DNA from: Yuukianura sp. NJ FZ-2021
Lineage: Eukaryota
Direction: 5' to 3'
Assembly: GCA_046563655.1 (NCBI GenBank)
Contig: CM102285.1
Location: forward strand, 15,066,001 to 15,130,000
DNA: 64,000 nucleotides
Shown: positions 853 through 29,625 of the stretch, piece by piece
Layout of the letters: each line of letters opens with the position of its first letter
How positions within the stretch are numbered: position 1 is the first letter of the stretch
Notes under the pieces: model-generated
Told to the model about the DNA's origin: nothing
Database searches by the model: none
What the model saw: the letters and a program-made list of their open reading frames with translations, nothing else
Made by a program: the position numbers and the translations under genes

Positions 853-3800
853 GACGACGCCAGAAGATCCGATGAAGAAGTGGAGACTCTGCGTGACGTC
901 TGCTGCATGAATGTCATTGTGATATGGATTCTTTTTAAACGTGTAACCAAACTCTACTGCTGAAATAAAATTGTCCAATTTGGCCAAATTGATTTTGAAC
1001 TTTTGGAGAATTCCGTATCGGCTAAATAAGTCTTTCACGACGTACTTGAGACTGTGACTATTCGACTTTTCATGCAGTTTGAAAATATCAAAGTGCCAGT
1101 TGCTGATTTCCTGTTAAAAACAAACAAAACTTTTAACTTTCTCCAAAAAAAAAGTTTTTTGAAACTTTCTTTTTGAAATTTGAATATTCAAGGAACATGA
1201 AACGTGCTTGTCTGTCATTGTTTCAACTTTGTGCTTCTTTGAACATCCGATTTTCATCTGAGCATGACACGGTCCCATTATTTTTCAATTTGACTTTCAC
1301 TTTTTACAAAAAAATATAAAAATAAAAGTTGTGTTCGCTTCCTTGCGCTTCCGAAGCGGAAAAGTACTTAAGAAGGAAATTACTTTCTTTTTTCGGAAAA
1401 TCCTCTTCAAAATTTCACAATCTGATGGAAATTCAACTACTTTAAAAATAAAACTACTTTTTGAAATTCAACTCACAATTTTGAGAAAAGCGTCTTAAAA
1501 TCCCTCCATTGAGGTTAAATGTGCATAAAATAAATTTTGGGGAGAAAAGAAGCGGTTGGATTTGATTGTCTTCTTGAGCTCCCGCCTAATTTTTTTTCTT
1601 TGAGTTTTGTGCTTTCTCTTTTTTGGTTTTTGAAGTGATTCCAAAAACATTTGGACTCTCTGAGAGTACTTTTTTGGACGTTTGTAGGATTTTGAAGATG
1701 AAAATTTAAAGAAAAACATGAGGATTCCTGAGATGACGGCAGAAGAGCCCTTGACAGTCAAAAGCACAAAAGCAAAATTCCTTCCGCCAAATGAAAAACA
1801 AATTCTTCTGGACGAAGACTCAAAAGAACACTTTCTCCAAACGAATTTTTTCATTCGAAATTTCAATTTCACGTTTTTCCTTTTCGAGAAACACGTTTCG
1901 AGTTTTTTGGTAGGCTGACAAAAAAATCTAATCTTACTAAAGTGAAAGTCCAAGTAAATCGAAATTAGACAAGTTTTTGATAATTTTGTTGTACTTCCCC
2001 CGAAAAAACTTTTGCTTAAATTTTGGATTTTCGCAGGAAAGAATCTTTTTGGAGGGCGTCAAAGTTAATTTTTTTTTTGTTAAAGACTTTACAGTTGGCT
2101 AGTAATTGTGTGATGAAGGGTTTTGTTTTTCTTTGTTTTTGGACATCAAAGCAAGAGTTTGAAAGTTGACTTTGTTAGAATATCTAAAGTTAGGATAGGC
2201 ACAGTTAGGTTATTTTAGAATTTAATTAAAGTTAGGTTTGCATTTTGGGCGTTGGAATTAGGCATTGATTTTTCATTATTCAAAGAGAGTGGGAACTCTA
2301 AACCCAAATTACGTCGTCAGCGACACAAAAGAACCAAGTATGCTCTCTTTTCAATTCTAAAAGCACACGTTTTCAGTACATAAATTCCCACTTTCACTAA
2401 ATATGAACGACCAAAGTGCACTTTTTAGAAAACATAAAATATAAAATCTGTCTTTCTTTTTTCAAAATTTTCTCCTCACTTTCACCTTTTTATGAAAAAA
2501 GTTAGTGACAAACCTTTAAAGAGGAAGCAACTTCTGGTGGGATCTGAAGAGTGTTTGAGCTCAGTTGTCGATAGAATCGATCCACGAACAGTCCCACCCG
2601 AATGGCATTGGCCACCGATCTTCAATAATAAAATAAAATATATTATATTATTTATTATATTATTATAAATATTTGAGATTCCTCACCGGAACCTTGGACG
2701 TGGCTCGAGAGCTTTGCTTCTGGGTGGGAAGTTTCGAGTGAAAGTGGAGGCTAGCCATGCTTTCACTTCGTCCGGAATCACTTCCTCCTCAACTTCAGAC
2801 AATTCGTGGTCAGACTCCTCTCCACCCCCGGTTCTGAATTTTTAAAACACACTTTTCAAAATAAAATCAAAATTTTGAAACTAATTTCAAAACGAAAAGC
2901 AAAAAGTCTAATCTTGGCATTTATTGTGAGTAATTTTCATTTGAGGCTCATAAAGCATAATTGGAGAAAGTAGCGGAAGGAAGTGAGTTGTAAACTGGTG
3001 GATTTTGTGTTTATTGCGTTTTGTTAGGTTAGTCAAAATTAGGTTATGTTTAGGTTAGGCAGTGAAGGATTCATTCATTTGTTTCAAAAACGTACTAAAA
3101 AGCCAAAAGTACAGAGAGTTTCAACAGTTTTAGTTGCACATAAATCAGGACACACGACACTTTCTCCGGGAAAGACACAAGAGGAACCAATTTGTCAGTT
3201 GAAGTTAGCGGAAAACAGAAGGAAATTGTTAAGCTGAAGCGATACAAAAGAGAATCGGAGGAAGTGAGGTCAAAGGTCAACAGGAAACGAAACACTGCAA
3301 TAAATCTCAGCTCATCACCTCCTCCTTCCTCCAAAATTTATTTTCAAAATCTACTTTCCAAAATCCACTTTCCAAAATCTACTTTCGAACATGCACTTTC
3401 CGAAATGTCCTTTACAGAATTTAGAAAGTTGTGTTTTCAAATGTAAATTTAAATTGCTCCTCCACTTTCACCTGCAATAAACTCAAATTACTCCACTCCA
3501 CTTCCGAAATCTCGAAACAACCTTGTTTTTCTTTACAATTGTAAAACGTACTCTGCAAAATGAAATTTCTGGACTGGAAAAACTATTTTTTAGAAAAACT
3601 TCTTTTTTAGATTAAAGTTGAAAAGAAAACGTTGGATTGGATTTGGGTTTGATGAGTGGTGAAAGTTTGTGTAACCACGCTTCAAAACGTTCTTTGAAAA
3701 TGCTAAACTTGGGTTTTGTGGACCTAATGCTTCTTTTGATCTCAGGATCTTTCAATTTCACTTTTCAAAAACTTTATTCAAAACTAACTGCTGAATTAGC

Positions 3801-6306
3801 ACTCCAAGTACTGAGCTAATCACTCAAAAAAGTGAAAGTGTTCAGAAATTCAAAGTGTTACTTTTTGGGAATCTTTTAAAACTGCATCAGTAAGATATGC
3901 AGCGTCTTTGAAAAAATGAGTTTGACAGTTTTTTAAAGATTCGCTCTGTACAATTTCCTTCCTTCTGTGTTATTTTTTATGAAGCGGAGAAAGTTAATGG
4001 TCGACTGAGTTTTTGTGTTATTTTTGGAGAAGCTGTTAAGGACTTTCTCCGTCTCGCATTGACTCTTGCTTCACAGCATGACGCCTTCTCTCTGTTAATC
4101 TTAATCAATTCAATTGTTCCCGCTCTGGACCAAGATGGACACGTAGAGTGCAGGATGTGGACACACAAGAGATGTGGACATCTCTGGACGTCTTATTCTC
4201 GTTACCAAAGTCAGTAAAGACTCAAACGTTATGGAGACGACGGGATCAAAGGAAGTTTTTGCCATTCTTCTTTCGTACTGGTTGCCATGGCAACCGATAC
4301 GAATAAAACGGGTTCCTTTTTGCCCTGGTTCTTTGGAAATTCTAGCTGAAATGTTGAGAAAAACGCAACGTCTCATTAGAGCTCTTTAGACTCTGTCATC
4401 ATCGTTTTCGCAGATTTACACAACTTTTCAAAAGAAAATGTCCAATAATCCAAAGCACTTTTCCTCTTGATGTCAAATTGTTTATGAAAACTGACAAAAC
4501 TGAATACATGTTTATGAAAAAAATCGATCCAAAAGAAATTTGGTTTCCGGTTACTCCAAAGTATAAAATTCAAAACTGTTCTCAACATTTTCAAAATTTG
4601 ATATATCACCTACAAGCCCACTGAAAGAGGAGAGGAAAAGGGAGAGAGTTTCTATTCTAAAACACTTTTTTTAGTTTTAATCAAAATATTTAATAAACTT
4701 TCAAAATTTTGAATTTTTGTTTCAAAAAGATGAAAAGAAAAACAGATGAACTAACTTCTGGTTTACAGGCTAATTGAGCCACAAAAACATTGCGACAGTG
4801 GCGTGCGAATCGAGCAGCAAGAGATGAGTGAATTGTTGGTCTAAATTCTACTAGAAAAAGCTTCTAAGTTTGAGATATCTACGAATTGTTGTAAAAGCCT
4901 AAGATTTTTCTAAAAATGCAAGGCTGTTCTAAAAGTCTATGACTTTTCTAAAAAATGCAAGCTGTTCTAAAAGTGACTTTTTCTAAAAACCGGATTGTTC
5001 TAGAAATGAAAGATTGTTGTGAGGTGGAGTGAGAGTGATTGATGAAAATATGAACCTGGATTGGAGTGGAAGACGCCTGGAGTCTGTCGGAGAGAGTGGC
5101 TGGTCCCCTCTGGAAGAGACAGAGGACACATAGCATGAGATGTCAGAGGTCAAGAGGTCAAAGGTCAAAGGTCAAGGACATACAGAGGCTCATTCAACAA
5201 CAGTTCGTCCACTGACTCTATTCTGGCCAAGTGGTGTCGACTGCGGAAGAGAGCAGCAGACGCCGCAGCATCTTTGGTCTTAGCACAAACGAATGCAGAA
5301 GAACTGAAACAAGCACAGTTGTTAGAGCCCTACACTACTCCGCACCTAGATTTTCAAAATTTTCAAAAAAATTTCAAAATTTTGTTCATTTTTTAGAAGT
5401 TTAGAGCGTAAAACTTTTTATACAAAAGAACAATCTTCAACTAGCGGAAAGTGAAACAAAATATTATTTTTCCAACTTTCTCTTTTGTGAATGCCGTTAG
5501 ATTTTGGTAAGTTTGGTTTTCTTGTTCAGAAATCAAAATTTTTACAGCTTTCTAAATTTTGTTCAAAATTTTCGAAAACGTTCAAAATTTTAGCGACTTC
5601 ACTTCATCTCTGTTGGTTTAATATCAACGGAAGACGTAAATACCTGAATAGAAATGATGCCAACAATAATTTTTTGAAATTTTCTTTTGTGAATGGCGCC
5701 AAACTTTGCCATTTTCGTTTCCCTTGATTGGAAATCAAACTTTTAAAACTTTTTAAATTTTGTTCAAAATTTTGAAAAATGTTAGTAGTTAAGTTCTAGG
5801 CATGGAAAGAAAGCAATAGAATAATTTGCAGATAATTTGGAGTTATAAGCTAACCTGTCGATGTTGGCCCCGTCCTGGATGATGTCCAGTGCATACTGGA
5901 TGTTTCTGCGGAGGATGTCAGGGGTCATGTCCTCCGTGACCCCACTGGCCAACTTGTCCACAATCAACTTCAGTCTCTGCGTCACACTGGACGTGGTCAA
6001 CACGTCCAGGTCATCGCGCAGGTCAATCACAGGGTCCTTCTTCCGCATGATCTTCAGACCATTCGTAGGCTCATCATTCGCCACTGAAACAAAGGCAAAA
6101 TTCACAATTTCTCAAATAATTTCTTCAAATAAAATCAAAACATTTCACAAATTTTGCAAAAGTTCCAATTTTCGCAAACAATTAGGATTTGTTGAACTTT
6201 TGTGTGTGCTAAATTGCGTTTTATGGCACGAATTACCTATCTGATAAGTGGCTCCGTCAATATGAAAAGTGGCACTGTGACACCGAAACATTTTGTCTCG
6301 TGACAT
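853..6306 (-). CDS. PDE1: Ca2+/calmodulin-dependent cyclic nucleotide phosphodiesterase 1 (5' part; remaining catalytic exons lie beyond the left edge)
   Basis: Exons 6306-6237 (MSRDKMFRCHSATFHIDGATYQI), 6083-5855 (VANDE...DGANIDR), 2833-2687 (ELSEVEEEVIPDEVKAWLASTFTR), 2619-2514 (RSVANAIRVGLFVDRFYRQ), 1110-853 (WHFDIF...NPYHNDIHAADVTQSLHFF). Junctions are GT-AG and phase-compatible. The motifs are PDE1 hallmarks, including the class I PDE NPYHN..HAADV motif. Confidence 0.93.
4281..4294. promoter_or_regulatory. RFX X-box (perfect palindrome GTTGCCATGGCAAC) in a PDE1 intron
   Basis: Exact canonical X-box sequence; the palindrome extends to 16 bp (4280-4295). Confidence 0.6.
5184..5303 (-). 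CDS. PDE1: Putative in-frame cassette exon of PDE1 (40 codons)
   Basis: TTTCAG acceptor, GTATG donor, 120 nt, phase 2-2, open in the PDE1 frame (SSAFVCAKTKDAAASAALFRSRHHLARIESVDELLLNEPL). Confidence 0.55.
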
Positions 6307-6919
6307 GCTGGACACTGCTGTGCCTTTGGAACTTAAGTGACAGTCACTCACTTTCATAACATCCTCTGATTTTCAAAAGGTCACTCAAAAGGTCAACAAG
6401 TCACTAAAAGTCACAAACTCTCCGTTTTTCACACTAACATGACCTTTCCCTTTGACACTTCCGACTCCTCTCCACCTTTTTTCCAGAGATTAGATAATTT
6501 TTTTGGTTCATTTTGATCCAAAGTGACAACACAAAGTTAGCCGCTGGACAGAGAGTGATTAGTGGCCCAAATCCAAAGGAGTTCCAAGGTAAATCTGTTG
6601 ATTAAGCCCAATAAAACTCAAAGTACTTTGGAAATGAGAGTTTAAGCCAAGGAAATTGGTGGCCTCAGGCCAAATGCACTTAGCCTAACTAACCTAACCT
6701 AAGTTAGGTTATGGTTTGGAACGTTCCCAGCGTTGGAGAAGTTAATACCCGATAATACCCGGGAGCTTTCAATGCTAATCAGATTCTTATATTTGGAGAT
6801 CCACCAATAAAAAGCTAACTCAAGAGTGGAGCTAATGTGAGGAAAACGTGCTTAGAATGATTGAATTTCAGCCTGCAGTAATCACGTTCCCAAAAACTTT
6901 CTCTTACTGCACGCGATTA

Positions 6920-7300
6920 ATGTCTTCAACTGAACTTTATGAGACATCTGGCAATCCTTTCTTCAGACCAAAATAGTTACTCCCTCCAAATCCAAAAATC
7001 TTGTGAAATATGCACTATAGTCTATAAATTTCAAGTTAGTCAAATTTTAACTTGAAAGGGTCTTCAACTGAAGATTACGAAGCATGTGGCAACCCTTTCT
7101 TCAGACCAAAATAGTTACTCCCTCCAAATCCCAAAACCGAGAAATAGCCATTCTAATCGATGACTAATCGTTATAGAAATCTGAATACACATTAATCAAA
7201 ATTTGAGTTAAAATGGTCTTCAACTGGAGTTTAGCAAATATCTGGCAACTTTTTCTATGAACCAACATAGTTACTCCCTCCAAATTTCAAAATCTTGAGA
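6920..7300. repeat. Diverged tandem repeat, 3 copies of ~140-157 bp
   Basis: TCTTCAACTG...TGGCAA...ACCAA(A/C)ATAGTTACTCCCTCCAAAT recurs from ~6923, ~7061 and ~7218; a lone core copy lies at ~11657. Confidence 0.8.
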
Positions 7301-10300
7301 AACATCCTTTTAGTCAATTACTAATCACTTTAGTCTATAAAATAGGAACTTAATCAAAGTCAAATTGAGTTAATCAAAGTGAAATTAAGTTAATCAAAGT
7401 TAAGAAGAACTTAATCAGAACGAAGTGGAACAAAGGTTATTCGGTTAGTATTTTTTGGAGACAGTGATTGATGATTTTGATTGGATTTGATTTGACGAGG
7501 AAGAAAGTGGAAGACAAAGGGATTGGAGTGGGCAGTTCTGTTGGATGAAGGGCCTGTGGGGACCCTTAAGCCAAAACCCAAAACTTTCTCCCGGGTAAAA
7601 TAACAATTGATCCGACTTCTCCCTCACGGCAGGACAAAGTAAACATAATCCAATAAGCCAAGAAAAAAATAGACTATGGAGGTTTTTCCTTCAAGAGGAA
7701 GAAAAGGTGATGGAAAAAATGGCCTTTCCTCTACTTTCTTCTTCACAAAAATTCGTTTTCAAATCTCCCCCGCCATTTCTTGACCATTTTTTCTCCTTTT
7801 TTCTTTGAACTTTCTATGAATATTTTTACTTTTAGTTTGCTCAAAAGGAGAAAATCGGACTTTCCATTTTGAAAATCAAAGAAAATGAGAGTGACCTTAG
7901 CCTAACCTAAACCTAACGTAAACCTAATGTAAACCTAACAAATGTCGCAGTGTTTGTTCCTGTGGGAGAAAGTGGATTTACTACATTTGTTTTCCAATCG
8001 GTTTTACACTCAAACGGAACATGGCCAGTGGCTACGCTCGATTTAGTTTACGGAAAAAGTAAAAAAAAATTCAGGGAAAGCGGAATTCAATTTTTTTGTG
8101 AAAGGCAAGAGAAAATTCTCAAAGCGGAATTTCCTTTTTACTTTTTTTTTCCAAATTTCTGAGCAGATTTTTCAGAATATTATTGACATTCCATCCACGA
8201 AGTATTGGAGACCTTCAAAAAATGAAATTTCTGAGGAGAAAGTATTTTTTTTTAAATTTTGTCTAACTAAAATTCCAGTCACAATGAATACGGTGAAAAG
8301 TTGCATGTTTGTATTCTGAGTTTTTGGCAGCTAGGTTTGCTGGGTCTCTGGAGTTCTGATTCGACAACTTCAAGAATTGAAACCAATTTTTCAAAAAAAT
8401 ACTTTTTTAATGCAAGGTAAAAATTCCAATTTCACTTTCACTTTCACCGGAAACACGAAAAAGTAGGAAGAATTGAAAATCTTGCAAATTATTGTGAGAT
8501 TGTTGGGCTTAACTTGTACACGTCGAATTGAAACTTCACTTTTACTTTTGTTTCAACTAGTTATTTGCACTCTAATTTTCTTTTAGTGATATGGAAAGTG
8601 ATTTAGAATTGTTTTAAGGTTGAAGTGAGGCCGTCGTAGTGTAGTTGTGTCCACGAGAGACAGAGAGTGACTGAAGGGAAGACGTGGAAGCGTGTCTGCA
8701 CAAGAGTTGGGTTGAGATTGCCATAGAAACTGCCAGGAGAAAGCAAACCTCCCGCTTTCTCTTCTTCAAGCAGCCACTTTCTCCTTATGACAGTCTCAGC
8801 ATAATTCAAACCATGAATGGACTCAATTCCCACTAATCACAACAACAATACTACTTTTTTACTCCAACTTTTCAAAAAAGTTTAATTTGTTTTTTAAAAA
8901 AGCGATTTCACTTCTTTCAAAAACTAGAAATATGGTGGGAAAAGTATGTGCTGCTGGTGGAATTAATTTTTGAAAAATGGTTTTTGGAGAAATGGGTGAT
9001 GAATTTGGAGAAATTGAGTTTTGAGAGGAAAGGAATTTGTCAAACTTTCTAAAAAAGAAGTTCGGATGAAGACGCAAAGTGAGTGAAGATTTGTGAGTGA
9101 TTGAAATGCTCAAGTCGTGGACTGATCAGCAGCCGATGTTCCTTTTCCCGCTTAAAAACACATTTGTGCCTCTCTTCTTGGAAAAAGAAAGTAAAAGTTT
9201 TCACTTTGTTCTCATCGCTTCAACTTATTCTGCCAGATTGTGAGTCATGATAAACTTTTCTTCAGAATTTCACTTTTCCTTGGGAAAAAGTCTTCAAAGT
9301 CTCCCTGATTTGGTTACCATTTTCCAAACTTAATTTGGCCAACTTTCTTCTCAACAGCACAGACTCAATCATCACCATTTCCAAAAACTTCACAAAATAA
9401 AAATTTTTTTGCTTACTACAAAAAATCAAAACAAAATTTTCAAAAATTCGAAAACTTTCTCTTCTAAAAGAAAAAAATTAAAACAAACACTTACACAGAC
9501 TGTCGAAAAACTCTCGCCGAAAATTAGTTGTTTCTTCCACAAGGTGTTTTTAGTGCAAATTAAAAAAGTTTTGGCAACACTTTTTTGTTTCTAAAAATGA
9601 ATTTGACGGTGCGTGTGACAGAATGACAATGAAGGTGGAAAGTTGCACAATCCCGAGATTCGCTTGTTCTAAACACAAGTTTTGTTCTAAATCGGGAAGT
9701 TGTTCAAACAGGCCGCCTAGGGTGGTTGTGTGTGTAGTGGTGAAAGTAATTTCTAATTTTGTGTTCTTGGGTTGTGTCTAAACCTGGGAAGAGGCGGATG
9801 ACTCTATCAGTCCACAATAATATCGGTTTATCGATTCACATTTTCACTAGGAAGAGGAACAGAGTTGTCTGCATGGGCCAAGTAAGTTAGTTTGTTCCCA
9901 AAAGAGACTAAAAAAGCTCTGAGGTTGTTCAGCTAAGATTAGAACAGAAAACAAATCAACGTCATAATCAAAAAACACACAGAAACCCATTCAACCGTCA
10001 ACTAAATGTCAAAACTTTATCAAAAACATCACAAAATAGACAAACAAACAAAGCCGATGCGTAGATTTTCTTTGGTAAAACTCTGCAGATTCTTTAAAGT
10101 AAGAAAATGTGACTGAATTGAAGAAAACTAACCATGAAATCATTTGGGGAGAAGCGGCAATATGTTTCAGAGAAAAAGGTATTGGAGGGAGTAACTATGT
10201 GAATTTGTTTGGAAAAGAGGCGGGGAGCGATGTGAAAGGTTTGTGATGGTTGTTGGGATGAGTCTTTTATGTAGATCACTTTTGAGATTGACGCAATAAG

Positions 10301-18490: not shown

Positions 18491-20284
<1,794 letters not shown>

Positions 20285-21949
20285 CTTGTGACACTTGAGT
20301 CCTATCCAATCTGTAACAGACAGACAAATGGTGTCAAAGTCACTTGTCTTGTAACTCACAAATTGTAACTGTCAATGTAACTTCTAATGTGTCCTGTCCA
20401 ATGGACGACAAACGATACCAAGAAATGGATGTATACAGAACAGAGGTTACGAGATGTCCAGTACAGATGAGAGATGAGTTGTAACGTTACCTTGTACCAC
20501 CTGATGAGGAGGTCCTTATTGAAGTAAGTTGTGGACAGAACGATTTCCCTTGTTCTGCTAATAGAGAAAAGTAATTGATTTATGTGGTTGTTGTGTCCAC
20601 TACGGTCATAAGTAATTGATGTTTTCCTAATTTTCTAATCAAATGATGTGAGAGAGAGAGGAAGTGAGAGGAAGAGTGGAAAATAGTGCAGGAGAGAGCG
20701 AGAAGTGGAGCTCAGTGTCTTATCGGCTCTTGCGTATTCACTCTCTGTTTTTGGGAACGAGGAAACAGAACGCAAAAACAAACCGCGGACATGCCGAAAA
20801 CCAAGGACTCAAACTCAAGGGTTTTTCAAAACCTTACAAACTAGGACACAACAAATTTCATTTCCGCTTAATAAAAAACGTCTAAAATAGCTAACGCCTC
20901 ACTTTGACAATTAAATAATACCTAACTGCAAACAATAAATTTTACACTGTAAGTACCAAAAACAACAATAAATATACATGAAATAAAACAACAGCTGACC
21001 CAAATTAAAACTGTAAATTAAAGGTTTTGCCCTCACGCTTCTTTTAATTCATAATTGCATTAAAACCTTTTGAACACTTAATTTAATTTTATTTAATAAA
21101 ACATTTAATCAAATGAAACTTTTGAGTTGCATACGTAATTGTTTTATTCAAAGAATATTGCAATTTTGTTTGCACAAAATTTTACTGCATTTAATGGAAA
21201 TCCGAAACAGTTTTTGTTCCACTGTCATATTTTAAATACATCGGAAACGGTTATCTATAAAAACCTGTATTACAATTTAACCATACAATACACTTTCCAA
21301 TTTCAACATGACTATTTAGTCTTGTATTGAAATTGGAAAGTGATGTGTATTTTGAGTGGATTTGGATAGTAACGTACAAATCCTTGGGGTGTCCTCGGTC
21401 GTATAACCGCGGAATTCGAGAGATCGCGGGTGAATAAAGGACAAGGCTAACTTGATCAAGAGGAGCCTTGGCCCCGCCTCCACTGCAGACCATAACCAAA
21501 TGCACGCAATAAGTCATCTCCTGGGTCATGACACACAAACCCTATGACAGCTGTGGACATCAATTTTAATTCTAATTAAACTTAATGTTTAATTAAACCA
21601 ACAATTGAAAGTTATCTATATGCTGTTATTATTTACCTTACGCATGCTTATTAATAAGATTATTTAATTACTTTTAGTTGTCTTTCTTTATTTAAATATA
21701 ATGCATATTATTTTTATTTTAATCTGCCCATGTTTGGTTAATGTGGTGCCACGTAATGTATGTGGAGAACCGTGAGACGAACTTGAAAATTAAAAAAACA
21801 CAAACATTCGAAATGTAAAGAAAACAAATTCAAATTCCGCAGATGACAGCTGATCGGTGTTCATTTGCTTCTTGATTGTTTATACTTAAAATTTAAACCA
21901 TTAATTGATTAATTAGTCTGTTAATTACTTTTGACAGAAGGCCTGCGAG

Positions 21950-23174
21950 ATGTTCTCTAGCTTAAGAGAGAAATTCCACAATGTCCAGGAGGAGATTTCA
22001 TCCAGGTATGTCTTCGAACAATTCAATTTCAATAAGAACTCCAGGTTGTGCTAATGGGAAAACGTTGTCTACTTTTAGCCTCAAGAACTTGAAAATTGAT
22101 CGACATGGAATCCGAAGAAAGTCCAGTGTACCAAACGTGAATGCCTTGACTGGTTCCAGACCAAACGTTAACTTAGAAGCAGGGGCAGAGTTACTTGAAC
22201 ATTACGAAATCGCTTGGAGTGATATTCATCGCAAAACTGAAGAAACAGCCACTTCAGCGCAGGTTTTAGACAAATATTTTTCTAGAGTTTTCTTTTAGGT
22301 TAAGTTGAATCACATGTTACATTTTGTTTTATGTATTCTTAGACTGCTGCCCTTTTGATTTCAAACCTTCACAGAAATTACGAAGACCAGTGGAACAAGA
22401 TGGTTCGCCTGTCGTCTGGACTCGCCATTATTCCCAAAGTGGTTCACGGTGTACAAGAAGTTTCAGACCTCTTATGTAAGGACCTAAGTGACAAATATAG
22501 TATGAGTTGTTATGAATAACTTAAACTCTGAACTTATAGTATTTTCGTACTTTAGTGAACGTGCAATGTGCCTTTGACGAAACACAAGACGCCTTACTGC
22601 AACTGGAAAACATGATTGAGACGATAGAGCTACGAGAGAAGGAATTAGAACACCAGTTCCAGCTTGCTCTTTACAGGAAGAAACGAGAGGATGAACTGGA
22701 CGATTTGAAAGGTTTGAATTAACTCATCGGCACAACAGTGTGATCATAAAGTATGATTAAAACTCTACCATAACTTTTTTACTTTATAGTGAAACTGACG
22801 AACGAGCATTTCGTCAAAATCAAAGAATACGAGAAGAGAAAGGCACTTGAAATGAAGATGAGGCAAGCCTACTTTCAAGAAGCATTTGAAAAGGACCTTG
22901 AGCAATACAAGGACGGAAGTCTCGTCACCCGTAAACTTTTTCATCTTCAGCCAGTTTTTTTCCAAATAGATGCTGTTCTAAAAATTCTAAAAAATTGTAT
23001 TTGTGAACTATTTTAGGAGTTGATTCGAGAGCTGAGAAGGTATCGTCCCCTTCTCTGGAAGAAATTGAGCTGGAAGAGGACACGACCAACTTGGAGAACT
23101 TCCTTGCCGATGCCAACGACATTGAAGAAGAACCAATACCAAACCATGCAAATACCACAACTACTGTCACATGA
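21950..23174 (+). CDS. DTNBP1: Dysbindin (BLOC-1 subunit), ~275 aa
   Basis: Exons 21950-22005, 22079-22262, 22343-22475, 22556-22711, 22790-22930, 23017-23174. MFSSLREKFHNVQEEI start, NLEAGAELLEHYEIAWSDIH, MRQAYFQEAFEKDLEQY and acidic SLEEIELEED..LENFL tail match dysbindin. Confidence 0.9.
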
Positions 23175-23506
23175 TCATCCACTGGCACAGTCACTTGCTA
23201 CACTTCAACTGACAACGACACCATTAACCACTTGATTGTTGTCTTTTTATTCACATTCCAATCACTTTTTGTTGTACAACATACAGTTGTGCTTGCCCAG
23301 CGATTTCACTTAACAAGTACCTTCAAATTACAGCATTTATTTTTTAATCATCATTCCATTAAAGTTCTAGTCCAAACTTCTTGATATTTAAAAATTCATT
23401 TGTTACACAAATCTCCGTCTTGCAACACACTAAAGCATGCAGTGTAAGAAAATACATTGTGCAAGTATTTTCTCAATTTTTTTCAAAATACTTGCAGAGT
23501 TAACTG

Positions 23507-25775
23507 TTAACCACTTTTGTAGGCTTCGTACAACGCTGTCGGGATCTTACCACTGGAATGCAGAGCTCCAATCAGCCTTACTCTCACATCCGATGCAGGT
23601 TTTCCATGTCTACAAGTAAATCAAAACACAGTTTTTTAAATTTCTCCATTAATGATTTACTAAATCGATTAATTGATTAGTGATTTCTTGATTAGTCATA
23701 GGATGACATACGGCTTTCGGAGTAACGCAGGAAGAAACTGATCGTAGTAGTAGCGCTTCCGAAACATCAGCATTTCTGTAATTGCAGCAGGAACTTTCTG
23801 GACAGCCTCAAATGCTTTGATGACTCGGTCAATGTCAAGTTGGATCTGAAAGAAAAGACAAAGGTTAGTTTCGATTAAGGATGAACGAATTAATTGACTA
23901 ACTAATTGAATTGACTAATGCAAAGACTCACTGGGTTGTTTGGATTCGGCAGATTCTCTTCTGCCAGTTCCAGTTCAGCATCTTGTTCCTCTCCAATCCG
24001 GATTTTGGCTGATCCAATGTAATCGCTCCACACATTTCTCATTCCAGCAGGCACAAATGGCCAATATATTGTATGAACTTGGAGGAAACAGATGGGGTCA
24101 TTCGGCAACATGTCGCTTAGGACACAAGCTAAAAAAGTAAACTTTTCTGGAGATCTGGCTGGAGTGGTCGTTTCGCCTCCAAAGGTTCCCGTGTACCATT
24201 TTTCATATCGGTCGAATTTTGAAGGAGAAATTAAGCAGCAGTGTCTCGCCATCACGAAAGCACCGACAATTCCTTCGGAGTTTCTTGAAACTATGCTGGA
24301 CGAGAGTATCTTGTGGATAATTTGTTTGAGAAATGAGAAGACATTGAAGGTGGATTGCGATCTGTATTGTTCCAGAGTTGTAGTTGCAACTGTTGTCATG
24401 ACCAGGACCATCTCCCAGTTGACATTGCCCTCTTGCACACGCTGTTCAACCAACTCGAAAGCTTCGTCAAGCATTCCCGGATGTCTAAGAATCTGAAAAC
24501 AAAGTAAAAGTAGAAACTTAAAAGTGAAAAGCTTCCAGAAAAAGGAAAAAAACAGAGAAATGTGTTGATTCTTGAAACGCATACTGAAAATATTGCTTCT
24601 TTTGCTCCTAAGTACTGCTCCTCCGACTGAGTTTGCGCAGTAAACTTTTCCTGTTGGCGTTGGATGTCTTGTAACGTCAAGGTCACAGTTTTCGACAAAA
24701 TCTGATTCATGTGGTCAATTCGATACTTCTTCCTAAGATCGGCAGGGAGAAGAACTAGATTAAAAAAAAACAGAAATTGAGTGTTAATTAAGTTTTAGTT
24801 TGAGTTAAGATTGTTGTTATTTTTACCATCTTGAAGATAAACTGACAATACTTGTTGACTCCAGCGTTGACATGGGTCATCGGACAGCAAGCGTGACTGG
24901 ATTCCTGTCACCACGTTGTCAGCTACGTTTTTGAGACGTATGAGTTGGTCGTTTGATTCGGGGTTGGCGTAAGAAGCTATCACAATTTCCGGAACAATAA
25001 CTGACATGATCTTGGTCAAACGTGTCTTCTTGGAGTCGTCAGTGTCAGCAGCCGACCAATACCCGAAACAAACAATCTGGGTCGTAAGGAAGTTCTGGTC
25101 CGGAATGGATTCAAGGCTAGAAAAAGAAGAACAAAGTAGAAAATTGTGAATCGATGGGCTTAAATTTCACAAATACGACGAACCTCACGAGATATGCGTT
25201 CAAAGCAAATAGTTTATACTTACTACAAGTCATCAACCAAACGAGCTCCAAAGGCGGAAACTTAATCTTGAGAGGAACAAATTAAACAAAACAAATTACA
25301 AAATAACAAATTAATTACAAATTAATTACATAAATTCAAAGGATTCACAACAACAAAATCGTATTTATGAGCTGACCTGCGTACTGAACAGCTTCAAAAG
25401 ACGAAAGTCATCGAACCCAAGCCCAGGCGTATCTTTGACTAAAGTTGCGAATACTAGCAATCGTTTAATTGATCTCTTCACTGCCTTGGTGCTGATGAAA
25501 AATGTGGGTTCGAAACGTTTCTCATTGTCGTATTCAGTGTCATCTACTTCCATTGCATTGACGTTCCAATTTCCAGCGGAGGTGTTGCCCTGTACTTCCA
25601 AAAGTTTCCTTAGTTTTTCCACTACGAAGACAGGAACGTAATCGTATCGGGCATTCTGAATAGCAATGGAATTTGCAATCCCTGGAGTGCCCTTGTACTG
25701 CGATACAAATTCCTGTTCCAATTCATACAACAACTGTGATGGCAGCGGTTCATTGTCGTCACGTCTGGTTCCCAT
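23507..25775 (-). CDS. FANCA: Fanconi anaemia group A-like protein, N-terminal region only, ~579 aa
   Basis: Exons 25775-25377, 25266-25184, 25116-24827, 24754-24585, 24492-23932, 23845-23712, 23609-23507 (1740 nt). AFVMARHCC..YEKWYTGTFG..FTFLACVLSDMLPNDPICFLQVH..WSDYIGSAKIRI, DIDRVIKAFE..MFRKRYYYDQFLPALL and RVRLIGALHSSGKIPTALYEAY are collinear with recalled vertebrate FANCA blocks (YADWFKASFG, LSELVPFESPRYLQVH, DYISLAKTRL, FRRPYYVSHFLPALL, KIPPSLYSTY). Confidence 0.82.
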
Positions 25776-26321
25776 GTATCACACGAAACACCTGTAATCA
25801 AATCAACAGACAAGCATTTAGTTGACTAATTTAACAACAATTAACTTATTAATTAATTAAATTAACTTTCACCTTTTCTCTGTGCTAATCTTAGTATCTT
25901 ACTAGAATTTTCTTCCGACTTTTGTTTTGATTTTGAAGGGAGAAAAAATTCAGCCGAACGCGGCTTAATTTTTAAAAAATGTAAACTCTCGTCTCACCTT
26001 GCCCCAGAAATGGATTTGGCGGTAAACTGAAAATTTCAAACTTATTAGAATTTCAATCTCAATTTTTTTTCTGTTTTTGTTGTTCATTCATCTTCATTCT
26101 TAATATTTCAATAAAATTTAATTGTTCAATTACTAATTAGATGAGAAACGTTTAACTTACGATTGGTTTCGAAGACGTTAACGAATTTGCCGTAGGTGTT
26201 TTGTCGGGCGAGCACTTTTGATAGCCCGTAAATACAAGGAATAAGGCATAGTTGAACTGATTTTGTTCGTTCGGTGGATCAGCTGTTCCGGTAAACAATC
26301 ACTAATCACTCATTTGCTAAA

Positions 26322-29300
26322 ATGTCTTACCTACAAACGAAGCTAATCAGTCACTCCAGGAAGGTTTGCAGTCTCTACAAAAAGGCACTGAGGACTACAG
26401 AGTCTTGGTGTACTGACAGGTAAGGCACTTTTGCTTTTTAAAATTTCAATTTATTGGTCAAGTTGTAGTACAATTCCGAAATGTATCCATTTTAGTTGAT
26501 TTGGTTTTATTATAAATATTATAAATAGTGGAATTTATTATTTAAATTAATTGTTATGAGCTTAATTGTGAGAGTTGCGATTGTTGCGGATATTGCTTCC
26601 ACTAAACCAGCGATAGAGTCTCTTCATGGGAGAAAGTACATCTAAAATATCCAAATCCACAATTGGATTTTTAGTTTCTCTCCTTCCGAATTCCTTTCCA
26701 CCTCCAAATCCCATGGATTTTCTATTCTTTCGTTTCATCACAAACGTTTTAAAAGCGTTCTTAACCTTTGACACGGCTTTGTTGAATTTCCCCGTGAGTC
26801 CAACCATTAACTTCTTCAATCCACTTTGTTTCGGTTTGAAGAATGGGAATGGACCGACGTTTGGCCTCTGACCTTGACCTCCATTTTCATACGTTATGGA
26901 AGGTAGCTGATTTTGAGTGTTGTGGAATGGCATCTCTTCACTTGTTGGATTGAGATACGCGAGAGTAGTTGACATGATCATGACAGGTTGTTGACCATTT
27001 TGCTGTTGAACATTTTGCAGTTGGTCATTCTTTCTCTGGAGTTTAGCTGGAGCAGATTCAATTGAGTTGATCGGAGGTCGTTGATGATACGGGTTCCTGG
27101 ACGGTGTGAATCCCGATTCTCTTCTGAGATTCGTGTTTTGATTCGGGAAGATCGGAATGCTGTCGGCACTTATGCTCATTCCGTTCGGGAATCCCCGTGC
27201 TTCAGGACTTCCACTCCGAATGGCTTTTCCTACCCTGCGATTCTGTTCCGGGTCTGTTCCTAAGCTCCAGTAACGAACTCTTCCTCCGTTGGACTTGTAG
27301 TGACTATGACCCACTTTCTGCACACTGTCATGAATGTTAATTTCACCTTTGTTCACCAGGAAAATCGGAGAGGAGTTTGATACGGTGGAAAAAATGACTA
27401 ACAAGGTCACACAAAACGGCCATTTCCCACGGTGCCTCGTCCTTAAATTCTGGAACATCATGTCCAGAAAAAATTTAAAATCTGGAGGAAATTGAAAAAC
27501 TGCTATTGAAATTTTAGTTCTATCCGGATGTCGTTTTGTGTCAGATTCCGAATCTTGTTCTCAATTTTTGTCTGAGGTCAGTTCGATGCGTGATGCAGAT
27601 TAGGTTTAAAGAGTGGCGTGTCCTGGTCCTTCAATTTTATAAACCATGTTGTCCATTTTGTGTAAATTGGATTGCCATAATTTCAAATTTGAATGGGCAG
27701 AATGTTGAGTTGTGGACAGCAGGAGGTGGGACGTGGGTCGGTGGGTGGAAGATCCGTTCGAGGATGTGGAGTGACAACGATTTAACAATGGACACAAAAG
27801 ATGTGGATCAACAGACTATAAGAGGTGGCAAAAATAAGGAAATTTTAGTGGAAATTACAGAGTAATCAAAGGAAAGCGTGACTCACTTTAACGGATTTCC
27901 GAACTTTATTCGGAATGAGAAGTTAGGACGCGCAGTGCCCAGATACTTGGACTCAACTGGTGCAAAAGACTGTCAGACGGTGACTGAATGCTCGAATGCT
28001 GGCAGTACAATGTGAAAAAATGTTGATGAGAGGCCTAAAATTCCCAATCCTGTGAACTCAATCTTCAATAATCTAAACACCCGAAACGCCAAATCCTTTT
28101 TTCGTTTTTGAACTTCCTTGACCATTTCCTTTACATTTTTCTTAAATTAATGATATTTTCCAAATAATTTTAGCAAGTCACAGTTATGTTTTTGTGTGAA
28201 AATGGGACGAGGATGAAGTGTCATTGTCAGGGTCCGAATGTTAATTCAACAAAACATACAATTTTCAATGATTTGATTAGGAACGATGCTGGCAGCATCA
28301 AGCATCATGCTGCTGAATATTGGACACTACTGATTATGGCGCGAAAATTTTGAATTTTCGTTTGGTTTCATTCCGTGCTTTTTAACTAAAAATGCATGTG
28401 AACTAAACACTTGTTTTTTCAAAGTCATTCTCACATCATTTGAGTAAAAAAGCAAACAAAGGCAATATTTTTGTTTTTGTTTTTTTTTTCTGTTTTTCGC
28501 GAGAATTTTGTGTTTGCAAATTTTTGTGTGTGCGTTTTGTTGAGCACATAAATCGTTGTGTCCATCCAAAGTGACGTTGAAAGGGAAGCAAAGTAGTCCA
28601 AGTACTTGAAGGGCCTCGAGTCTCATTTATGAGAAATAAAACAAGGATTTACTCTCTCAAATTCCTTGCAATTAAAGTTTGGACTCAAATGTTGCGTTTT
28701 TAGAGTGGCCAATACGGATTGTGTTAATTACATTTTCACTTTTCCTTGTCACTTTTTAAGTTCTTCAAAATATTTGGATACACTTGAAGTTTAAAAAGTA
28801 GGTTAAGCTAAATTCCTCAGATCCGAGATGAGATGTGACATGCAAATTACTTAAGTTAGCTGTGACAATGAATTGTGAATTGCTTTTTGTTTAATTTACA
28901 GACACACTTATCGCTACCAAGCAGTGCACATGAGACAACGATTTGAAGAGCATCGAAATGAATTGGACATGCGAAAAGCCAAGGAACTCTTGGAACTGGG
29001 CGAGGAAGAACTCTTTCAGCAATCACACTATCAACCATTTCAATGTAAATTCATCAATCAGTGCACAATTGTCAATTGACTAGGAATTGTCAATTGACCA
29101 GCAATCGACACACAGTGGGAAATTTTTCAGAATTTTATGACCACTTTTTCTATTGACGATTTTTTTGAAAAAAAAAAACCCATTGATTATACCGGCTTTT
29201 ATTCAGAAATGCCAAAAAAAAAACTTACCCCGTGTAATTTGAATCCGAAAAAAGTAACTAAAAATCCGGAACTCAGAAAATTCGGATTGTCTTATTCGAA

Positions 29301-29625
29301 AATTCAGGAAAATTTCCTACTGTGCGACATTCGTCTTTGACCATCAATTGGCAATTGATTCGATATTCATGATAAAGTTGGATATTTTGGGAGTGTAGGT
29401 GAGTTAATTGAATTTTGATTGTTGTTTTTAGTTCCGAAGTCCCCCGGAGGAGTTGCATATGAGCGCGTGGTGACACCGCCTGACTGGGTCCTTGACTTTT
29501 GGGAAGAGCCGGAGAAGGCCCAGTACCCAGATTACTTTGCTAAGAGGGAGCAGCGGAAGAAGGAGTACATTGCTATGTGGGAAAAGAAGTATGGAAAACC
29601 GGATCCAAATGCAGAACATCACTAG
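26322..29625 (+). CDS. NDUFB9: NADH:ubiquinone oxidoreductase subunit B9 (B22, LYR family), 144 aa
   Basis: Exons 26322-26419 (MSYLQTKLISHSRKVCSLYKKALRTTESWCTD), 28902-29044 (RHTYRYQAVHMRQRFEEH) and 29432-29625 (PKSPGGVAYER..PDWVLDFW...EKAQYPDYFAKREQRK). Confidence 0.95.
26562..27461 (-). CDS. Orphan, probably secreted protein (299 aa) nested antisense in NDUFB9 intron 1
   Basis: Uninterrupted 900-nt ORF in AT-rich DNA; basic N-region then hydrophobic WPFCVTLLVIFSTVSNS (signal-peptide-like); CAG acceptor just upstream (~27482-27484). Confidence 0.7.
   Translation of the reverse strand: MMFQNLRTRHRGKWPFCVTLLVIFSTVSNSSPIFLVNKGEINIHDSVQKVGHSHYKSNGGRVRYWSLGTDPEQNRRVGKAIRSGSPEARGFPNGMSISADSIPIFPNQNTNLRRESGFTPSRNPYHQRPPINSIESAPAKLQRKNDQLQNVQQQNGQQPVMIMSTTLAYLNPTSEEMPFHNTQNQLPSITYENGGQGQRPNVGPFPFFKPKQSGLKKLMVGLTGKFNKAVSKVKNAFKTFVMKRKNRKSMGFGGGKEFGRRETKNPIVDLDILDVLSPMKRLYRWFSGSNIRNNRNSHN

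Follow-up and report, generated by a model that had tools for sequence, protein, structure and literature searches.

Solved structures of the DNA-repair protein FANCA come from human (1455 aa; chains A and S of PDB 7kzp) and Xenopus (6lhs, 6lhu). Its parts are joined by disordered linkers and comprise a FANCG-binding segment with a nuclear localisation signal (residues 19–67), N-terminal repeats, a helical domain (530–619 in Xenopus) and a C-terminal arc. The arc provides the surface for dimerisation, a basic groove for ssDNA, the region for FAAP20 and a further contact with FANCG (bioRxiv 10.1101/854158; PMC7102982). In PMC7102982, ssDNA binding, strand annealing and FAAP20 binding map to the C-terminal domain, as do more than 90% of patient FANCA point mutations, and the vertebrate structures show this domain packed against the helical domain and the conserved end of the N-terminal domain. 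In humans the C-terminal half is essential. In the human complex, the contact of one FANCA copy with the helical bundles of FANCB and FAAP100 covers 2,800 square angstroms of buried surface, the text naming no FANCA domain for this contact (bioRxiv 10.1101/854158). A review regards the module formed by FANCA, FANCG and FAAP20 as the most enigmatic one of the complex (PMC7588663).

Surveys present arthropods as depleted in the core complex, a view based on Drosophila (PMC11061109, PMC4657327). The fly-type minimal pathway consists of FANCL, FANCM, FANCD2 and FANCI, without FANCA (PMC11061109). FANCC, FANCE and FANCF are reported in Hymenoptera and not in Diptera or Lepidoptera (PMC10085685). 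Full-length FANCA is nevertheless on record in arthropods, in Schistocerca cancellata (1319 aa), Anabrus simplex (1276 aa) and a tick (Dermacentor) cluster (1247 aa). Public databases also hold short arthropod proteins in which the Pfam domains Fanconi_A_N and FANCA_helical are followed by a stop: Allacma fusca (569 aa), Orchesella dallaii (563 aa), Cloeon dipterum (512 aa), Nesidiocoris tenuis (476 aa), Lycorma delicatula (530 aa), Clastoptera arizonana (469 aa), Megalurothrips usitatus (605 aa) and Lepeophtheirus salmonis (497 aa). They are named 'FANCA homolog', 'N-terminal domain-containing' or not at all, and the gene described here is one more member.

Structure and identity of the window gene

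The window, a stretch of 64,000 nucleotides from Yuukianura sp., carries a FANCA gene on its minus strand. As the first-pass annotation had proposed, seven exons encode about 579 aa and end at a TAA at 23509–23507; rebuilt, they join into 1740 nt (579 aa and the stop) with no internal stop, and all six introns (67–110 nt) are GT-AG. Coding exon 1 (25377–25775, aa 1–133) starts at the ATG at 25775, preceded two codons 5' by an in-frame TGA, so the protein has no N-terminal extension in that frame. This region is poorly conserved, and a comparable N-terminal stretch is present in Orchesella and in the metagenomic locus L033. Exon 2 (25184–25266, aa 134–161) encodes the PLELxW motif common to FANCA proteins. 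Exon 3 (24827–25116, aa 161–258) encodes N-terminal helical repeats, with a weak profile match and an alignment to L033, and exon 4 (24585–24754, aa 258–314) was placed by splice model and profile search. The conserved distal Fanconi_A_N repeats lie in exon 5 (23932–24492, aa 315–501). Exon 6 (23712–23845, aa 502–546) encodes the first half of the helical, or middle, domain, and exon 7 (23507–23609, aa 546–579) its end and the stop; the KIPTALYEAY block is followed by only three residues. Upstream, splice-site context suggests a probable short 5' untranslated exon (25998–26026, minus strand), and another may end at 26161. Downstream lie a candidate polyadenylation signal, AATAAA, about 165 nt past the stop (23336–23341, minus strand), and a second candidate hexamer at 23251–23246 on the same strand.

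Exon 5 matched Fanconi_A_N (PF15865) with an E value of 3.6e-20 (73 bits, cut-off 27), and exon 6 matched FANCA_helical (PF24781) at 1.1e-10 (42 bits, cut-off 28), exon 7 extending the latter match to profile positions 54–80 of 82 (E 8.3e-05). Against PDB sequences, exon 5 aligned to residues ~405–520 of the solved human (7kzp_A, E 1e-12) and Xenopus (6lhs_B, E 3e-15) proteins, and these two FANCA entries were its only matches among 177,635; exon 7 alone and one neighbouring exon gave nothing useful in the same set. The homology to FANCA claimed at first pass is supported. A word-index search with exon 5 against longer proteins yielded 0 of 432 candidates, and one with 16 aligned short forms yielded 1 of 7999. 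In the ESM Atlas, exon 5 also retrieved a mostly arthropod cluster (116 members, 376 aa) whose only domain is Fanconi_A_N and which may represent a still shorter form, lacking the helical domain. AP-5 zeta (SPG48) clusters came up as well and are look-alikes (scores 0.84–0.85). The window gene is the single Fanconi_A_N locus detected in the genome (98.7 Mb, 22 contigs) and, judged by its sequence, is an intact, single-copy FANCA orthologue.

The window protein corresponds to human FANCA residues ~90–625, the front 40%. Its N-terminal repeats and helical domain are common to human and Xenopus FANCA in sequence and fold, whereas the arcN/arcC C-terminal domain of about 830 residues is absent; because the canonical architecture includes that domain, we class the protein as a FANCA-derived short form. 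The fold comparison was made on the Allacma orthologue, which stands in for the window protein. Its model (mean pLDDT 80.5) superimposed on human FANCA 87–524 of 7kzp_A with a Z score of 23.9 and an rmsd of 4.2 over 376 aligned residues, the next entry reaching Z 9.7. Foldseek returned two matches with E below 0.001, both FANCA chains, and the sequence match spans human residues 144–621. The model thus shows the N-terminal domain fold as preserved in the Allacma orthologue.

On the 3' side, a convergent gene on the plus strand (21966–23174, start approximate) ends with a TGA at 23172–23174, and the gap from the FANCA stop measures 332 bp, against the ~330 bp estimated in the first pass. The name dysbindin given to this gene has a sub-threshold Pfam match behind it (PF04440, E 0.012), and we call it dysbindin-like. 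Poly(A)-type hexamers of both genes fall inside the gap (23246–23363), which means that the two transcripts may overlap in their 3' untranslated regions. A MATH-domain gene (19805–20371, minus strand), presumably SPOP-like, lies upstream of the dysbindin-like gene; L033 has a different gene on that side. Head-to-head with the FANCA gene lies NDUFB9, encoding the complex I B22 subunit (26295–29625, plus strand, limits approximate), whose last exon matched NDUFB9 structures (E 4e-26) and whose first exon gave an LYR match. Within its first intron, a single-exon open frame of ~299 aa runs antisense (26562–27461, minus strand), with a hydrophobic, signal-peptide-like start, a Q/N/P-rich body and no Pfam match.

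A stop shared across arthropods

Among the named relatives, those of springtails are the closest. Over more than 500 residues the window protein shares 32% identity with the orthologue of Allacma fusca (569 aa) and 30% with that of Orchesella dallaii (563 aa). Both group with it in the gene tree (support 100), which suggests a springtail (Collembola) origin for the window, and both end at the same profile column; for Orchesella a 529-aa form lacking the final exon is also on record. A metagenome scan confirmed three FANCA loci (L031, L032 and L033) among 236 pattern matches. In L032 and L033 the last two intron positions, those flanking exon 6, are the same as in the window gene, and the in-exon stops lie 8 and 5 residues past the conserved aromatic of the final helix. 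L033 also has the same tail-to-tail convergent neighbour, 301 bp past its stop, with two exons 83% identical, whereas the last exon of L031 was not found before the contig end. A check of relatives' stops had been proposed with the original description of the gene; Allacma, Orchesella and two of the three metagenome loci share the position of the stop.

Exon 5, used in an exhaustive search, retrieved 129 clusters, for 30 of which names were looked up. Placed on a full-length FANCA profile, 19 of the 129 end at columns 575–599 with at most 15 further residues, while every other 25-column bin from 500 upward receives 0–3 cluster ends; 62 clusters end past column 1200, 27 by column 560, 19 at columns 601–1200, and two at columns 600–611 with a longer or later tail. 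The 19 comprise six named arthropods (Allacma, Cloeon, Nesidiocoris, Lycorma, Clastoptera and Lepeophtheirus), two mollusc models (Ruditapes, marked partial, and Aplysia), five nameless clusters and six outside the name look-up. The presence of mollusc models in the bin means that some short records may be annotation breaks. A mayfly, three true bugs and one copepod end at the same point as the springtails; the N-terminal-only form first described for a single lineage is supported and far wider than one lineage. Among 17 rows picked for their shortness, 14 have 20–27 residues beyond the column of window residue 560, compared with 704–865 in 11 long rows (704–733 in the full-length arthropod proteins, which have the same two N-terminal domains). 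All 16 short relatives scanned carry Fanconi_A_N and FANCA_helical and no other FANCA family, and an 85-member, mostly arthropod Atlas cluster (representative 583 aa, score 0.90) has the same two domains. Mean identity among short forms is 31–35% in the distal repeats and helical domain against 13–19% in residues 1–330, a pattern of conservation that places the distal part under selection. On these sequence comparisons, a conserved short form of FANCA is well supported.

We regard it as highly improbable that this stop is an artefact, the transcript splicing on from a donor just before it, or that the gene is a remnant being lost. GT dinucleotides do occur at 23514 and 23511, the L032 and L033 stops overlap a possible donor, the true donors of the window gene are variable, and the end of L031 is missing from its contig. 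However, the position and phase of those GTs differ among the three loci, and none of 138 donor–acceptor pairs tried down to position 21000 takes the protein beyond 639 aa when one exon is added; the longest product is read antisense through the convergent neighbour. The open frame, the shared introns and the motifs conserved across proteins only 18–37% identical argue instead for long-term selection.

Search for the C-terminal half

We built a C-half profile from 40 long proteins and ran it against the 244 kb surrounding the gene. None of the 7906 open frames there matched (best E 0.36), whereas an N-terminal profile recovered exons 5–7 in the same 244 kb (E 4e-37 to 2e-06). The C-half profile was calibrated on five left-out arthropod-type proteins at E < 0.01: with 60-residue pieces all five proteins were detected (13 of 54 pieces), and with 120-residue pieces 15 of 25 were detected, and since springtail sequences sit on longer branches its true power here is lower. 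Together with the trial splices above, the lack of C-half exons in these 244 kb speaks against a transcript that splices on past the stop. Across the genome, full-length Anabrus FANCA found exon 5 only. Searches with the Pfam FANCA_CTD and arcN models gave no candidates, but these models miss their own cut-offs on five of five full-length arthropod-type proteins, which makes the genome-wide Pfam blanks uninformative. No short protein (<725 aa) resembling the Schistocerca C-half appeared among 7604 candidates, no C-half-only cluster among the sets of larger clusters shown by the Atlas, all of which contain Fanconi_A_N (scores under 0.9), and no C-half exon in the 5 kb behind the L033 gene.

These results bear on a split gene, suggested as an alternative at first pass, in which a C-half encoded elsewhere has diverged past these searches and reassembles with the N-terminal protein. 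We consider it unlikely. Conservation in the short forms falls on the surfaces against which the vertebrate C-terminal domain packs, which could point to a C-half acting in trans; arthropod C-halves escape the Pfam cut-offs; and the sensitive profile covered 244 kb of 98.7 Mb, so the genome-wide negatives are weak. On the other hand, the 244-kb profile, the Anabrus search and the 7604 candidates lend the idea no support, nothing resembling a C-half lies near the window gene or behind that of L033, and if the gene had split repeatedly, in several lineages, some C-half records would be expected.

Origins, pathway context and possible role

In a mixture-model tree (26 rows, 448 columns), the short forms of bugs and thrips group with the long Orthoptera proteins (support 97), with springtails outside, and full-length arthropod proteins are nested among short ones. 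P0036, a short tick-like protein of 547 aa, groups with full-length tick FANCA (support 100) and may be a further independent truncation or a short isoform in a chelicerate, or a fragment. The starred branches of this tree force at least three changes, several branches of the gene tree being long. With P0036 included, the hypothesis that one old duplication gave rise to every short form was rejected (p-AU 8e-9). Without P0036, a single origin of the 12 other short forms was marginally rejected under the mixture model with 26 rows (p-AU 0.038) and not rejected under LG+G4 with 39 rows (p 0.34). Repeated truncation is favoured by these alignments with modest support, and an old duplication with differential loss is possible.

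The genome also encodes FANCD2 (G000:C8, ~9.41 Mb; PF14631, E 2.3e-9). One of its exons aligns to FANCD2 residues 504–564 with lysine 561 kept, the matches being weak (E 0.1–1.1) and six of seven being FANCD2. The gene appears intact and multi-exon (L023 ~2677–8426, G000:C8 ~9407700–9413400, plus strand), and just behind it (L023 8701–9693) is a tandem array with 3.1 copies of a 318-bp unit, 96% alike. FANCL, searched for with four Pfam domains, and FAAP100 and FANCE were not found in an exon-wise genome search; this search saw only one of the seven FANCA exons and two FANCD2 pieces, so these blanks are weak, and the missing FANCL may reflect either a search miss or a real loss. The FANCL candidates turned out to be other genes, which by motif we take to be listerin-like, GAS2-like and other RING genes and a gene with a dsRNA-binding domain. 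Two small, near-identical RING-finger genes (L027 and L028; G000:C3 ~914,300 and ~920,600) lie 6.3 kb apart as a local duplication.

Our main reading, given a probability of about 0.5, is that short FANCA acts as an adaptor arm in a Fanconi ubiquitin ligase of reduced composition. On this view the arc-shaped C-terminal domain (human ~626–1455) would have been lost in its entirety and the N-terminal helical repeats and small helical domain kept. The short protein would dock through its conserved distal repeats and helical domain on the remaining core subunits, a FANCB/FAAP100-type hub, and so docked would support FANCD2 mono-ubiquitination. Lacking the arc, it would have no canonical FANCA dimer, ssDNA groove, FAAP20 site or C-terminal FANCG contact; as the cut falls exactly at the linker after the helical domain, these functions would be absent or supplied otherwise. 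That the cut lies at a natural, flexibly linked domain boundary would also explain why several lineages truncate at the same point.

Alternatively, the C-half and most of the core ligase have truly been lost, and the N-terminal and helical domains are kept for a ligase-independent role, for example as a recombination or mitotic scaffold. The blanks for FANCL, FAAP100 and FANCE are what this would predict, and a review lists BRCA1 and CENP-E as binders of the FANCA N-terminal region (PMC5320776). Scored with a profile of the FANCG-binding segment (human 19–67), none of 17 short forms exceeds 0.2 bits. The same profile gives more than 1 bit for just 4 of 10 long proteins left out of it and so failed on most full-length proteins too; a loss of the segment specific to short forms is therefore unsupported. 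We find this role doubtful, given the low sensitivity of the genome search and the FANCD2 ubiquitination lysine that is kept.

A homodimer of the N-terminal part was also considered. Two copies of Allacma residues 86–569 were predicted to pair with a score of 0.43, against 0.00 for the best of three controls, the runs agreeing in at least 55% of contacts with pLDDT of at least 78. This score passes the mark set for the method, which was reached by 21 of 30 solved pairs and 0 of 23 single chains among microbial proteins, and by 17 of 29 pairs (7 of 16 from animals) and 0 of 30 single chains among eukaryotic ones. The predicted interface lies in the middle repeats, away from the vertebrate FANCA dimer site, and of its 19 residues only 1 is identical to Allacma in the window protein and 2 are in Orchesella, below the 15% and 26% identity of the surrounding region. 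Because the interface is not conserved, we set the homodimer aside as a general mechanism and keep it as a lead for Allacma only.

Returning to the adaptor reading, the fly-type pathway is likewise reduced and keeps FANCD2, but flies retain none of FANCA whereas this genome retains half, and the half-FANCA state is possibly an intermediate between the full pathway and the fly-type loss. A broader and more tentative proposal is that FANCA consists of two separable modules. Loss of the C-terminal one would have occurred independently at least three or four times among arthropods (in springtails, Condylognatha, a mayfly, a copepod and perhaps a tick relative), and the N-terminal-plus-helical module would have been kept under selection with a conserved function of its own. 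These animals would then run an intermediate Fanconi ligase lacking the dimer of FANCA to which the human complex owes its asymmetry.

A full-text literature search, with most subscription journals outside its reach, returned no paper treating truncated arthropod FANCA as a class. Survey supplements could list these short proteins, and the records are already public under FANCA-like names. Proteins consisting of the N-terminal and helical domains only, which have apparently arisen several times, would mark those domains as a functional unit of their own. The short forms are ready-made minimal constructs in rearable animals, and they qualify the mostly Drosophila-based view of a depleted arthropod core complex.
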